Assembly: GCA_963841605.1 (NCBI GenBank)
Contig: CAWJDM010000016.1
Location: 2,405 to 66,404, forward strand
Length of the DNA: 64,000 nt
DNA from: an uncultured Acidobacteriota bacterium
GTDB lineage: Bacteria; Acidobacteriota; Terriglobia; Acidiferrales; UBA7541
Reading direction: 5' to 3'
Notes under the pieces: generated by a model
Databases searched by the model: none
What the model saw: only the letters and a program-made list of their open reading frames with translations
Told to the model about the DNA's origin: nothing
Translations under genes and position numbers: made by a program
Shown: in pieces, positions 12,163 through 17,454 of the stretch
Position numbering within the stretch: the stretch's first letter is position 1
How the letters are laid out: the number at the start of each line of letters is the position of its first letter

Positions 12163-12286
12163 GCGAACCTCCCATTAGGAGCGAGAGTAGGGCGGAGCAG
12201 CGAAAGCTCCTATAGGTTGATGCCCATAATCCGCGGTGGGGTATATCCCTAGGCTAGTACCCGTGAAACTCCTGTGAGAAACTAGG

Positions 12287-13291
12287 GTGATCATGGGCTC
12301 CCGCCGGCTCGCCTGCATTTTGCTTTTCATCTTCGGTTTCTTGATTGCGACTCCCTCCGCATGGGCGTGGGGCTGCGAAGGGCATCAGATGATCGCGTCG
12401 ATTGCCGAAAAACATCTCAACGCGCGCGCGGCGAGAATGTCGCGGCAAATTTTGGCCGACAGTCCGATCGATGCCGCGCTTGCTCGGTATTGCAAGCAGA
12501 AGGGGCTGGATGCGTTTGTCGATGCTTCCACGTGGGCGGACGACGAGCGCAACATCAAGTCGGACACAGGGCCATGGCACTTCATCGATATTCCGCGAGG
12601 GGCGCCGAAGGGCGATATTGCACAATATTGTCCGGCGTCGACGGGCTGCGTGGTTTCCGAGCTGATAGCGCAGGTCCGCGTGCTTCGCAATCCGAGCGCG
12701 AGTGCCCAGGCGCGCGCGGATGCCTTGCGCTACGTGATTCATTTTGTGGGCGACATTCACCAGCCGCTGCACGCCACAACGAACGACGACATGGGCGGCA
12801 ACTGCGTCCCGGTGACATTCTTCGACCGCGCGCCGATGGAGACGAATGTGGAGCGCGAGAGCTATTCGCCGAATCTGCACGCCGTTTGGGACGTCGGCAT
12901 CATCGAACATTTCGCGCCGCCGCAGGACGCGCAGGCCCCGACGGCCGAGCAGGTGGCCGCCGAAATCGGTGAAGCGGAAAAACTCGATCGCGATTTTCGC
13001 GAGCGATTTCCTTCGTGGCAGCCCGGGCCGATCGACTTCGCTGCGTGGGCGTGGGAGAGCCACGCGCTTGCGGAGAAGGTGGCCTACGGAAAGCTGCCGC
13101 GCGCGATTCCGATCGAGCGGCCGCGCCCGGTCGAGAGCTGCGCAAACGACGATCACATTTCGACGCGCATGCTGAAGCTCGATGAACGCCTCGCGGATCC
13201 CTACGAGCAGGCAACTGCCCCCGTCGTCCAGGAGCAGTTGGCGAAGGCCGGCCTTCGGCTTGCGGCGCTGCTCAATTCGATCTGGCCGTGA
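12287..13291 (+). CDS. Secreted S1/P1-family zinc nuclease
   Basis: The signal peptide ends ...SAWA, followed by mature N-terminal WGCEGH (the N-terminal Trp is a Zn ligand in P1 nuclease). HFIDIP and HFVGDIHQPLH motifs are present. Confidence 0.9.
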   Translation: MIMGSRRLACILLFIFGFLIATPSAWAWGCEGHQMIASIAEKHLNARAARMSRQILADSPIDAALARYCKQKGLDAFVDASTWADDERNIKSDTGPWHFIDIPRGAPKGDIAQYCPASTGCVVSELIAQVRVLRNPSASAQARADALRYVIHFVGDIHQPLHATTNDDMGGNCVPVTFFDRAPMETNVERESYSPNLHAVWDVGIIEHFAPPQDAQAPTAEQVAAEIGEAEKLDRDFRERFPSWQPGPIDFAAWAWESHALAEKVAYGKLPRAIPIERPRPVESCANDDHISTRMLKLDERLADPYEQATAPVVQEQLAKAGLRLAALLNSIWP

Positions 13292-13404
13292 TGGCGGCGC
13301 TCGGACCGCCGAAGTTCTTAGGTTTCCTACCTCCTTTTCGCTAGAATCCCCACCCATGGTTTCGCGAGATCTTCAAAGGGGCGCGGCAGGCGAGTTATGA
13401 AGCA

Positions 13405-14733: not shown

Positions 14734-15015
14734 CCGGCATCGTGTGCCCGTTTACCTGATACCTGATCGGCGACAAATTATCGCCCAATTCAGCCAAAGG
14801 ATTGCGCGCCCGGCGCCCTCGGAAGTACAGTATGAGGGGGCCGGGTACCCAAAACCGAATTCAGGCTGATATTTGCGCGGTTGCCATCCCACCCTCGGCA
14901 GCCGTGCGCTGGGTCCCGGTATAGCCGTACTATGACTCGACGCCTTCCTGGAATCCCACGTTACGGGACCTGGTAGGGCGATTTGCCTTCGCGGATGGCG
15001 ACGGAGGTTGTGCCC

Positions 15016-17454
15016 ATGTTTCTCGAATTCTATAAACTGCGCCAGCAGCCGTTTGGCGTCACGCCCGATCCGGCCTACCTCTACCCCAGCCAGACGCACT
15101 GCCAGGCGCTCGACGCGCTCACCGAAGGAATCATGAGCGGCCGCGGATTCCTCACGCTGATCGCCGACCCCGGCATGGGCAAGACGACGCTGCTCTATCA
15201 GGTGCTCGATGCGCTGCGCGATAAGGCGAAGACCGCGTTTCTTTTTCAAACGCAGTGCACCTCGCGCGAATTCTTCCAATACCTTCTCAGCGAGCTCCGC
15301 GTCGATTCCACGGGCATGGGCCTCGTGCAAATGCACAACAAGCTGAACGACATGCTGTTTTCGGAGCTGATGAAGGGCAAGCGATTCGTCTTGATCGTCG
15401 ATGAGGCGCAAAACCTGGACGATTCGGTGCTGGAAACCATCCGCCTGCTTTCAAATTTCGAGACATCGAACACCAAATTGCTGCAAATCGTTCTCGCGGG
15501 CCAGCCGCAACTGGGAGCGAAACTGGGCCAGCCGCAACTCGCGCAACTCGAGCAGCGCATCGCCGTGGTGCAGCGCCTGGAAGCTTTCCCGCCGGAGGAA
15601 ACCGCCGGCTACATCCGGCACCGCCTAAAAGTTTCGGGGCACAGCACTGGAGATTTATTTGAGCCGGAGGCGCTCGCGCTGATCGCCGAGCGAAGCCAGG
15701 GCATTCCGCGAAACATCAACCGGATCTGCTACCAGGCGTTGCTCGAAGCGCATGGCGAAGGGCTGCACACTGTGTCGGCTGAGATCGTCGAGCGGGCGGA
15801 TCGTAAGCTGAAAATCGCGCCGGGCCTGCGTGAATCGTCGGCGCAGGGACCATCGGCGCATGTGGGCGACGAATCCATGAAGGCGGCAGGCGCTTCGGTG
15901 GCGCCGCAGCTTACCTACAAGCCGGGGAGCGGGTCGAAGTCGCGCGGGTGGAATATTTGGATGGCGGCGCTTGTCGCGATCCTGCTGATTGCGGGATTCG
16001 CGTTGCCGCGCAAGCCCCTGTTCAGCCACGGGAATCGCGGGATCGTCGAGGCGAGCGCGAGAAGCGCTGCGATAGCGAAAACCGCGGTGCCGCCGAAGAG
16101 CGCGGTGCAAAGCGACGAAATCGACGACCGGCTGCAAACGCAGGGCTTTCAGGAAGTGGCCCAAGAAGTGAAGAAGACCGATCCGATCGCCGAGCCGCGG
16201 CTCGACGGCGGAGGCGTGCCGGACGTGACCGGCATTCAGGTGTCGAGCACGCAGAGCGACGCGCGGATCGTCGTGATGCTGAACGCGGCGGTGCGGTACG
16301 ACTCGGCGCGCATTACCGGGCCCGAGCGAATCTATTTCGATTTGCACGGCGCGCGGCTGGATTCATCCGTGCCGCAGAAGATGGTTCCCGCCGGGGACGG
16401 GCTGCTGAAGTGGGTGCGCGCGGCGCAGAATACGGATGATGTGGTGCGGCTGGTGCTCGATGCGGACAAGGCGAAGGTTTATTCCGCGCAGCTGCTTTCC
16501 GACCCGTACCGGTTGGTGATCGATGTTTCCGCGCAGCCGGGGGGCGCCGCGAGGAGTGGTGCGAGTTCGGCGGCCGCGCAAGAAAACGCGGCCAACCTTC
16601 CGTCGGATGCAAGCGCGAGCCACGCAAACCGCCTTTCGCTCACGCAGGCGCTGGGGCTGAAGATCAGCCGCATCGCGATCGATCCGGGCCACGGCGGTTC
16701 TGATACGGGCGCGATGGGGCCGCACGGCCTGATGGAAAAGAATCTCTGCCTCGACGTGGCACTGCGGCTGGGGCGGCTGATCCAGCAGGACATTCCCGGC
16801 GCGCAGGTGATCTACACGCGCACCACCGACAAATTCGTTTCGCTCGAAGACCGCACGGCCATCGCCAACCGCGCCAACGCCGACCTCTTCATTTCGATCC
16901 ACGCGAATTCGAGCGACAGCCCGGAAGCGCGCGGCGTCGAAACGTATTACCTGAGCCTATTGGCGTCGCCGGAATCGATGAGGCTTGCCGCGCGCGAGAA
17001 TGCGCTCGCGCAATCATCGCTCCACGATCTGCCCGAGCTGGTTCAGCAAATCGCGCGCAACGCGAAGATCGCGGAATCGAAGGTCCTCGCGCAGGATATC
17101 CAGAGCGCGCTCGCGACGCGGCTTGAGCTGGTAAGCCGCGGCGAGACGAACCGCGGCGTGAAGCGCGCGCCGTTCGTCGTTCTGACGGGAGCCAATATGC
17201 CGGCGGTGCTGTCGGAGATTTCGTTCATTAGCAACGCCAGCGACGAGAGCCTGCTGCTCGAGAGCAGCCAGCGCCAGCGCGTGGCCGAAAGCCTCTACCG
17301 CGGCATTGCGGCGTATCTCGATAGCTTGAACAGCCTGCCCGCCAAGAAGGACAACCATGCGAGTGCGAAGCCTCTTGCCCCATCGCCGACACTGACGGCG
17401 TCAACGGTAGTGGTCGGGCCAAATCCCCTTAAACTTCCGGGCCGCGGGAACTAG
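15016..17454 (+). CDS. Fusion protein: ExeA/GspA-like AAA ATPase - TM helix - AMIN domain - N-acetylmuramoyl-L-alanine amidase (Amidase_3)
   Basis: ORF 14983..17454 trimmed to Met12 (MFLEFYKLRQQPF, GGAGG RBS). Walker A ADPGMGKTT and Walker B VLIVDEAQ. One TM helix (WNIWMAALVAILLIAGFAL, about nt 15949-16005). AMIN-like beta domain (VTGIQVSSTQSDARIVVML...YRLVIDVS, about nt 16222-16530). Amidase_3 with Zn ligands (IAIDPGHGGSDTGA...E...FISIHANS...GVETYY, about nt 16666-17322). Confidence 0.85.
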   Translation: MFLEFYKLRQQPFGVTPDPAYLYPSQTHCQALDALTEGIMSGRGFLTLIADPGMGKTTLLYQVLDALRDKAKTAFLFQTQCTSREFFQYLLSELRVDSTGMGLVQMHNKLNDMLFSELMKGKRFVLIVDEAQNLDDSVLETIRLLSNFETSNTKLLQIVLAGQPQLGAKLGQPQLAQLEQRIAVVQRLEAFPPEETAGYIRHRLKVSGHSTGDLFEPEALALIAERSQGIPRNINRICYQALLEAHGEGLHTVSAEIVERADRKLKIAPGLRESSAQGPSAHVGDESMKAAGASVAPQLTYKPGSGSKSRGWNIWMAALVAILLIAGFALPRKPLFSHGNRGIVEASARSAAIAKTAVPPKSAVQSDEIDDRLQTQGFQEVAQEVKKTDPIAEPRLDGGGVPDVTGIQVSSTQSDARIVVMLNAAVRYDSARITGPERIYFDLHGARLDSSVPQKMVPAGDGLLKWVRAAQNTDDVVRLVLDADKAKVYSAQLLSDPYRLVIDVSAQPGGAARSGASSAAAQENAANLPSDASASHANRLSLTQALGLKISRIAIDPGHGGSDTGAMGPHGLMEKNLCLDVALRLGRLIQQDIPGAQVIYTRTTDKFVSLEDRTAIANRANADLFISIHANSSDSPEARGVETYYLSLLASPESMRLAARENALAQSSLHDLPELVQQIARNAKIAESKVLAQDIQSALATRLELVSRGETNRGVKRAPFVVLTGANMPAVLSEISFISNASDESLLLESSQRQRVAESLYRGIAAYLDSLNSLPAKKDNHASAKPLAPSPTLTASTVVVGPNPLKLPGRGN

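Follow-up and report, generated by a model that had tools for sequence, protein, structure and literature searches.

We have analysed a 64,000-nucleotide stretch of DNA (contig CAWJDM010000016.1 of assembly GCA_963841605.1, positions 2,405 to 66,404; hereafter the window), which lies inside a 4.6-Mb, 97%-complete metagenome-assembled genome (MAG) of an uncultured member of the Acidobacteriota. One gene of the window encodes an 812-residue protein in which an ATPase of the ExeA type is joined, through one transmembrane (TM) helix, to an AMIN domain and a peptidoglycan amidase of the AmiC type. In the literature searched, the combination of ExeA and AmiC in one polypeptide is not described; the parts are of known kinds. 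We consider that the product would be an accessory, membrane-tethered paralogue of AmiC, the position or oligomeric state of which may be set by the ExeA-type ATPase while a LytM-type activator gates catalysis; we give this reading a probability of about one half.

The gene bears on two old questions, namely how envelope-spanning machines pass the peptidoglycan mesh and what the ATPase of ExeA/GspA does. Here, the wall-binding domain of ExeA is replaced by a wall-cutting enzyme, so that the link between the ATPase and wall remodelling becomes explicit and testable in one polypeptide. The limits are that the carriers are uncultured soil bacteria, that the gene is accessory, and that every functional statement is inferred.

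Domain architecture and the ATPase half

The fusion is encoded by a single unbroken open reading frame (14983-17454, + strand), of which the gene proper takes up 15016-17454. The ATG at 15016 is the true start: a GGAGG motif precedes it with a spacing of 8 nt, F2 and L3 are invariant across 56 orthologues, and most of these start in the alignment at the Met that this ATG encodes. Three Pfam domains were matched over their curated cut-offs, namely AAA_22 at residues 41-166 (E = 1.3e-20), AMIN at 407-503 (3.3e-10) and Amidase_3 at 553-765 (1.5e-52), and PG_binding_1 (PF01471) was not among the Pfam matches of the product. Hydrophobicity marks a single segment, about residues 312-335, and AlphaFold2 predicts a helix at 310-326. 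The full-length AlphaFold2 model (mean confidence score (pLDDT) 59, predicted TM-score (pTM) 0.37) is confident for the ATPase, the TM helix and AMIN, leaves the linkers disordered and shows no packing between domains; it was used for the TM helix, AMIN and linker disorder only. Considering the types of domain, the protein is predicted to be bitopic, with one TM helix followed by a large periplasmic C-terminal part. A first-pass annotation, made from the letters of the DNA without database searches, had read the same order of ATPase, single TM helix, AMIN and amidase in one gene, and these results agree with it. A promoter and terminator scan gave nothing above chance.

In the ATPase half (residues 1-300, 54 family members), G53, G55, K56, T57, D129, Q163, R181, R203 and R232 are invariant and E130 is kept in at least 90% of members. 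The Walker A residues G53, G55, K56 and T57 and the Walker B residues D129 and E130 are also invariant in the 56 orthologues, which bears out the earlier description of intact Walker motifs. An AlphaFold2 model of this half, built from the 54-member alignment, showed the base and lid of an AAA+ protein with a pLDDT of 90.7. When this model was compared with the Swiss-Prot models by Foldseek, the top match was GspA/ExeA of Aeromonas hydrophila (P45754; E = 9e-27, TM-score 0.86, 37% identity over residues 1-275), and the runners-up were ORC/Cdc6 proteins with at most 19% identity. Judged by its modelled fold, the ATPase half is a true homologue of ExeA, as the first-pass annotation had proposed.

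By fold, the closest solved structures are ORC2/Cdc6, MuB filaments and TnsC, all of which work as parts of multi-subunit complexes or filaments. A sequence search of the PDB with the ATPase half gave no match, and the cytoplasmic domain of ExeA was also absent from the PDB fold matches. The cryptic GspA of E. coli K-12 was tried as a comparator and rejected as too divergent (no BLAST similarity, hhalign probability 22%), and the Aeromonas ExeA was used instead. The best NCBIfam model for residues 1-259 is TIGR03015, the XrtA/PEP-CTERM system-associated ATPase (1.3e-66), with 224.9-228 bits against a cut-off of 324.5. In ExeA itself, the ATP site is required for complex formation and the protein multimerises upon peptidoglycan binding (PMC4098917).

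The periplasmic half

Residues 403-769 align over their full length with AmiC of E. coli (4BIN residues 21-394, E = 6e-31), AMIN domain to AMIN domain, and residues 553-772 align with AmiA (8C2O). The NCBIfam models of AmiC, AmiA and AmiB match residues 404-768, all under their cut-offs (amidase_AmiC, 138.6 bits against 700). The catalytic residues H559, E574, H629 and E734 are invariant in 16 sequences, among which are E. coli AmiC, the canonical amidase of the genome and diverse fusions. The AMIN domain and the complete Amidase_3 domain with its zinc ligands, both named in the first pass, are thus upheld by Pfam (PF11741 and PF01520), by alignment and, for AMIN, by a confident beta-domain model. 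The first pass had also allowed that the catalytic residues might turn out non-conserved on alignment; all four are conserved.

The protein has the 60-residue insert of the AmiA/B/C type. E661, within the motif ARENA, is aligned to E167 of AmiA, the "latch" Glu by which the blocking helix binds the catalytic zinc (PMC10268282). The helix after it corresponds in the alignment to the hydrophobic interaction helix of AmiA/B/C, and such a helix docks into the LytM groove of EnvC (PMC10268282). R660, E661, N662, L672, L675 and I679 are invariant in 56 full-length orthologues, and the model places helices at 652-663, 672-680 and 685-707 of the insert with low confidence. Since the blocking and activator-binding helices are conserved, a LytM-type activator, and not ATP, is likely to be the catalytic switch. 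The amidase is very probably competent but inactive as long as no activator is bound.

The genome has two Peptidase_M23 proteins which could be LytM-type activators, one of 312 aa beside a class A penicillin-binding protein (L083:5996-6934) and a Csd3-like one of 562 aa (L084:5728-7416). Neither gene stands beside FtsEX-like genes; FtsE and FtsX were not searched for genome-wide. In two highly divergent metagenomic lineages of the fusion, P0126 and P0128, the four catalytic residues are kept and the RENA blocking helix is lost. These two amidases are possibly constitutively active variants.

Authenticity, selection and distribution

Assemblies from JGI, ENA, NCBI and Logan yielded over 110 clusters (90% identity) with the same architecture, and JGI names these clusters "amidase / ExeA". 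In the ESM Atlas it forms one cluster of 283 members, mostly from Acidobacteriota, automatically named for both domains. Because the architecture recurs in these clusters from independent sources, in the genomes of 11 relatives and, as near-identical DNA, in four soil metagenome runs, the fusion is not an assembly chimera. Selection was measured as pairwise ratios of nonsynonymous to synonymous substitution rates (dN/dS) among 12 orthologues, which were 0.04-0.19 for the ATPase, 0.08-0.25 for AMIN, 0.05-0.18 for the amidase and 0.2-1.4 for the linkers and tail. Purifying selection acts on each of the three folded domains. With its invariant catalytic residues and low dN/dS, the ATPase is predicted to be functional.

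The first pass had suggested a survey of this architecture across genomes; it recurs in many clusters and is patchy among genomes. When the whole protein was searched against 300 genomes across the phylum, the full-length fusion was found solely in the genome of the window, and the other matches covered the periplasmic half only. In the family, 134 of 137 high-quality genomes have the canonical TPR-AMIN-amidase, which counts as core, and a second amidase copy of the fusion type is present in about 14 of 201 genomes (about 7%). Among congeneric genomes, about 11 of 43 have the amidase fusion. The fusion is an accessory gene, an optional extra within one acidobacterial family, to which it has so far been confined. 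With the N-terminal half as the query, 128 of 151 genomes of the order had one to eight ExeA-like paralogues, in open frames of 320-900 aa. Outside the Acidobacteriota, the search covered the best 150 of 71,249 representative matches. A full-text search of the literature gave no description of an ExeA-amidase fusion, and the 2008 survey of AMIN does not list the ATPase-AMIN-amidase architecture. The first pass had considered that the protein might be an AmiC variant with a known function, and no published description of one was found.

The 20 loci that were fetched showed what else the ATPase is joined to. The order ATPase-TM-AMIN-amidase was found in 11 of them and an ATPase-amidase without AMIN in four, and the other architectures were ATPase-TonB_C, ATPase-Poly_export-SLBB and the ATPase with tails of no known type. 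Most of these ATPase proteins have a TM segment 40-60 residues past the ATPase, which is the same relative place in nearly all fusions. The ATPase and TM helix may accordingly be regarded as a cassette, a reusable module that acidobacteria join to different envelope domains.

The cassette is fused to TonB_C in one relative (L069:1850-4054, +) and to Poly_export and SLBB domains of the Wza type in another (L066:8219-10678, -), and further congener paralogues of 770-805 aa have tails without a Pfam match. The genome of the window also holds two more distant ExeA-like genes without a TM helix, with long low-complexity tails, of 463 aa (G000:C15:22166-23557, equal to L020:9667-11058, +) and 562 aa (G000:C12, L019:8417-10105, -). 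The former is directly downstream of a bactofilin gene and a 248-aa gene with no Pfam match.

Origin of the fusion

A maximum-likelihood tree of the amidase domain groups 21 rows in a main fusion clade (support 99/97), whose sisters are the canonical amidases of the same genus. Members that lack AMIN fall within this clade, which indicates that they lost the domain secondarily. P0125, G397 and G360 form another fusion clade (support 100/97), with a different set of canonical amidases as its sisters. The tree of the ATPases showed the same two fusion clades, with paralogues that carry other tails between them. From these trees, the fusion probably arose twice.

The periplasmic half shares about 66% identity with the core amidase of the septal type. 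In five genomes the two genes, fusion and canonical amidase, are only about 7 kb apart, and this spacing, together with the sister position in the tree, fits an origin by local duplication. By its sequence relationships, the periplasmic module is a recent duplicate of the core TPR-AMIN-amidase of the lineage, which an ExeA-like ATPase and TM cassette would have captured. In these five loci (L054, L055, L056, L057 and L061) the fusion is reached from the core amidase past tmk, holB and a GT4 gene. A DUF6599 gene usually comes next after the core TPR-AMIN-amidase, and does so in all loci seen whole; the comparison was between these five loci and G000:C13 (L001). This second synteny group (tmk, holB, GT4 glycosyltransferase, ABC-2 transporter and DUF6599) gave no functional clue.

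Proposed mechanism and comparison with known systems

We propose that the product would be a bitopic protein of the inner membrane, consisting of a cytoplasmic ATPase, a TM helix, a flexible tether, and a periplasmic AMIN domain with an autoinhibited zinc amidase. On ATP binding, the cytoplasmic domains would oligomerise or dock at a cytoplasmic or membrane site, as suggested by ExeA and by the fold. This assembly could then set the place and number of the amidase domains in the periplasm, within the reach of the tether of about 65 residues. The AMIN domain would bind the local peptidoglycan, as in AmiC, and cleavage would follow only once a LytM-type activator displaces the blocking helix, as the conserved blocking and interaction helices suggest. 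The outcome would be a spatially confined removal of stem peptides that leaves denuded patches of glycan, in addition to the core division amidase and not in its place. ATP would control placement or assembly, not catalysis itself.

The first pass had proposed an ATP-controlled, localised cleavage of peptidoglycan. On the one hand, localised cleavage that is set up from the cytoplasm remains reasonable, considering the homology with ExeA and the intact catalytic residues. On the other hand, the blocking helix and the disordered linkers speak against direct control of catalysis by ATP. A TM helix and two fast-evolving linkers that are predicted disordered (about 45 and about 65 residues) separate the two enzymes, and direct allosteric coupling between the ATPase and the amidase is therefore unlikely.

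Among known systems, ExeA/GspA (A. hydrophila P45754; GspA / EpsAB of Vibrio) is similar in its cytoplasmic AAA+ ATPase, which is homologous over its whole length, and in the order of cytoplasmic ATPase, one TM helix and a periplasmic part that engages the cell wall. The periplasmic part of ExeA differs, being a C39-like domain with PG_binding_1 that binds and does not cut peptidoglycan (E. coli GspA gave GspA_C39-like and PG_binding_1 in a comparable Pfam scan), whereas the fusion has AMIN and a catalytic Amidase_3. The fusion is also a stand-alone, accessory gene without a type II secretion system (T2SS) operon. With AmiC (4BIN), AmiA and AmiB of E. coli, the fusion shares the zinc and catalytic residues and the regulatory insert with its latch Glu, and with AmiC also the pairing of AMIN and Amidase_3. 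It differs from AmiC, which is soluble and exported by Tat, in being tethered to the inner membrane behind a cytoplasmic ATPase region of 310 residues, and it scores 139 bits against the NCBIfam AmiC cut-off of 700. N631 stands in place of the Asp that ligates zinc in resting AmiA.

The nearest functional analogy is FtsEX-EnvC-AmiA/B, in which a cytoplasmic ATPase governs an autoinhibited periplasmic amidase (PMC10268282). FtsE is an ABC ATPase, whereas the ATPase of the fusion is an AAA+ protein of the ExeA/ORC/MuB type. The signal in FtsEX passes through FtsX and the coiled coil of EnvC in a multi-protein system; the fusion is one polypeptide with disordered linkers, and a conformational relay in the style of FtsEX is therefore unlikely. 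The ATPases of TIGR03015 are the best profile match of residues 1-259 and have the same P-loop and DEAQ motifs, but they are short soluble proteins of exosortase loci. PA5037 of Pseudomonas aeruginosa is likewise an ExeA-type ATPase outside a T2SS and has an envelope-related phenotype, its deletion giving reduced pili and twitching; unlike the fusion, it adjoins pilus genes, pilMNOPQ, on their upstream side (PMC6321873).

Weighing of the proposal and of alternative explanations

Several points weigh against the proposed activator-gated, ATPase-positioned amidase. The carriers, uncultured soil Acidobacteriota labelled "Candidatus Acidiferrales", are all MAGs. No RNA run contains DNA of the fusion gene, and metatranscriptome contigs of relatives match the two conserved domains only, at about 80-85% identity and never across the linkers, so that paralogues are a possible source of them. 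What the data show are the architecture, the homologies, the conserved residues, purifying selection, the distribution and the origin of the amidase part by duplication; the oligomerisation of the ATPase, the targeting, the activator and the process served are inferred. The amidase domain has low confidence in the full-length AlphaFold2 model, and the geometry of the blocking helix is taken from sequence alignment only. As far as the sequences of P0126 and P0128 tell, the loss of their blocking helix means that dependence on an activator is not universal. For the two origins, the approximately unbiased test was applied to groups chosen once the trees were known; with the amidase tree it rejects a single fusion clade (p = 0.0011), with the ATPase tree it does not (p = 0.088).

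In E. coli, having several amidases with partly overlapping roles is the rule, and some Amidase_3 enzymes, such as LytH and SpoIIP, are anchored in the membrane. The fusion could accordingly be a redundant amidase of daughter-cell separation, targeted by AMIN and activated by LytM, for which the ATPase and TM helix are merely an anchor, an export signal or a handle for the divisome. Its identity of about 66% with the core septal-type amidase and its retained AMIN domain and regulatory helices agree with this. We consider it rather unlikely, considering that the catalytic residues of the ATPase are invariant and that purifying selection constrains this domain no less than the amidase, which a mere anchor would not need, that the fusion probably arose twice, and that several members dropped AMIN, the septal targeting domain, yet kept the ATPase. 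AMIN-containing amidases drill septal nanopores in Nostoc, and the genome has three secretins on other contigs, namely a PilQ with AMIN in a pilMNOPQ cluster, a TPR-secretin-cohesin protein and an FG-GAP-secretin protein, which answers the first pass's suggestion to look for T2SS and type IV pilus secretins elsewhere in the genome. These facts, the true homology with ExeA, the role of ExeA in secretin assembly through peptidoglycan (PMC4098917) and the effect of PA5037 on piliation (PMC6321873) are in line with the first-pass idea of an ExeA-like assembly factor whose peptidoglycan binding was upgraded to cutting and which makes a gap in the sacculus through which a secretin, a type IV pilus or some other envelope-spanning machine could pass. 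That idea fared less well against the genomes. Neither in the window nor in about 20 related loci, which represent five or more different contexts, does a secretin, pilus or T2SS gene lie beside the fusion, and none of the ExeA-like genes of the genome is near its secretins. The FG-GAP secretin, the only one surveyed (PilQ and the TPR secretin were left out), is core in the genus (58 of 61 genomes), while about three quarters of congeners are without the fusion; the FG-GAP secretin must therefore assemble without it, and as a core gene it was rejected as a co-varying partner that could explain the patchy fusion. Taken together, an opening for a secretin or pilus is unlikely.

The sister paralogue in a congener that is fused to Wza-type Poly_export and SLBB domains, and TIGR03015 as the best curated match, would suit a peptidoglycan-remodelling accessory of exopolysaccharide (EPS) or capsule export, in which the ATPase lineage would be functionally akin to the ExeA-like ATPases of PEP-CTERM/EPS systems and the amidase would clear the way for an OPX/Wza-type channel. 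We regard this as improbable and reject membership of the PEP-CTERM ATPases, since the TIGR03015 score is under the cut-off (225 against 324.5 bits) and no exosortase (PF09721) was found in the 97%-complete genome; nor is a polysaccharide export gene adjacent in the contexts examined. A patchy distribution, varied contexts and a PIN/MazE pair and an insertion sequence (IS) element nearby might recall an abortive-infection or suicide device, with an NTPase sensor and a lytic effector in a variable genomic region. This is highly improbable, because the gene is syntenic in close relatives between housekeeping genes and the effector is an autoinhibited amidase of the housekeeping type, across the membrane from any cytoplasmic sensor; PADLOC gave only weak, generic P-loop noise (E no better than 5e-4), and a defence system was rejected on these matches.

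A wider and quite unlikely possibility is that the ATPase and TM helix are a portable device, assembling below the membrane into an ATP-dependent ring or filament that templates an array of periplasmic effectors. With the amidase, it would make a self-contained "peptidoglycan drill" that cuts a pore of set size and position into the sacculus. The amidase version apparently evolved twice, and sister versions carry TonB_C or Wza-like domains. If such a device existed, it would also explain what the long-puzzling ATPase of ExeA does in type II secretion.

Feature coordinates

Table 1. Features of the fusion gene, with positions in the window and residues of the 812-residue product.
Feature	Position	Strand	Evidence
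Shine-Dalgarno-like GGAGG	15003..15007	+	sequence read; start backed by orthologue alignment
Whole gene, 812 codons and stop: ExeA-type ATPase, TM helix, AMIN, Amidase_3	15016..17454	+	
Predicted cytoplasmic AAA+ ATPase domain, residues 1-267: alpha/beta base and helical lid	15016..15816	+	AAA_22, AlphaFold2, Foldseek
Walker A (P-loop) PGMGKTT, residues 52-58	15169..15189	+	invariant G53, G55, K56, T57
Walker B, residues 124-130, ending in D129-E130 (DEAQ box)	15385..15405	+	conservation
Cytoplasmic linker, residues 268-311, Ser/Ala/Gly-rich, predicted disordered	15817..15948	+	pLDDT <50; dN/dS 0.2-1.4
Single TM helix, about residues 312-335, KSR just before	15949..16020	+	Kyte-Doolittle peak 2.15; AlphaFold2 helix 310-326
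Periplasmic linker 1, residues 336-402, predicted disordered, fast-evolving	16021..16221	+	
AMIN domain, residues 403-505, all-beta	16222..16530	+	PF11741 3.3e-10; pLDDT ~85-91; dN/dS 0.08-0.25
Linker 2, residues 506-548, Ala/Ser-rich	16531..16659	+	
Amidase_3 catalytic domain, residues 549-771 (H559, E574, H629, E734)	16660..17328	+	PF01520 1.5e-52
Amidase regulatory insert, about residues 648-707: blocking helix (E661, ARENA) and interaction helix (L672, L675, I679)	16957..17136	+	alignment
C-terminal tail, residues 772-812, Pro-rich, predicted disordered	17329..17451	+	

Neighbouring genes and further observations

The S1/P1 nuclease and MFS transporter genes lie upstream of the fusion on the same strand. 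Two orphan secreted proteins, the PIN/MazE pair, a carboxylesterase and an Fe-ADH are encoded downstream. The first-pass remark that neither a secretin nor an ExeB gene is adjacent agrees with the neighbours, which are unrelated to secretion and include no small bitopic gene next to the fusion. The ExeB profile PF16537 had no match in the genome, nor in any control genome, including E. coli K-12 with its annotated gspB. The synteny of the window is shared by close relatives; in other subclades the gene stands in four or more further contexts, and no partner recurs. The secreted S1/P1 nuclease gene (12287-13291, +) is a real gene with conserved synteny, and the 367-aa open reading frame over it on the opposite strand (12254-13357) has no Pfam match.

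Elsewhere in the genome, an ice-binding-like protein has a weak C-terminal PEP-CTERM motif (G000:C12, L084:4870-5739, -). The TPR-secretin-cohesin protein is an orphan secretin of 752 aa, with N-terminal TPR and C-terminal cohesin-like domains, encoded between argS and pepA-type genes and not surrounded by a secretion operon (G000:C9, L022:8643-10901, +). The fusion of FG-GAP repeats and a secretin has 1058 aa (G000:C15:129791-132964, equal to L023:9789-12965, -). In many congeners this FG-GAP secretin gives a two-piece match that meets near residue 400, where a single in-frame TAG is reported, which suggests a recurrent split, readthrough or recoding site.

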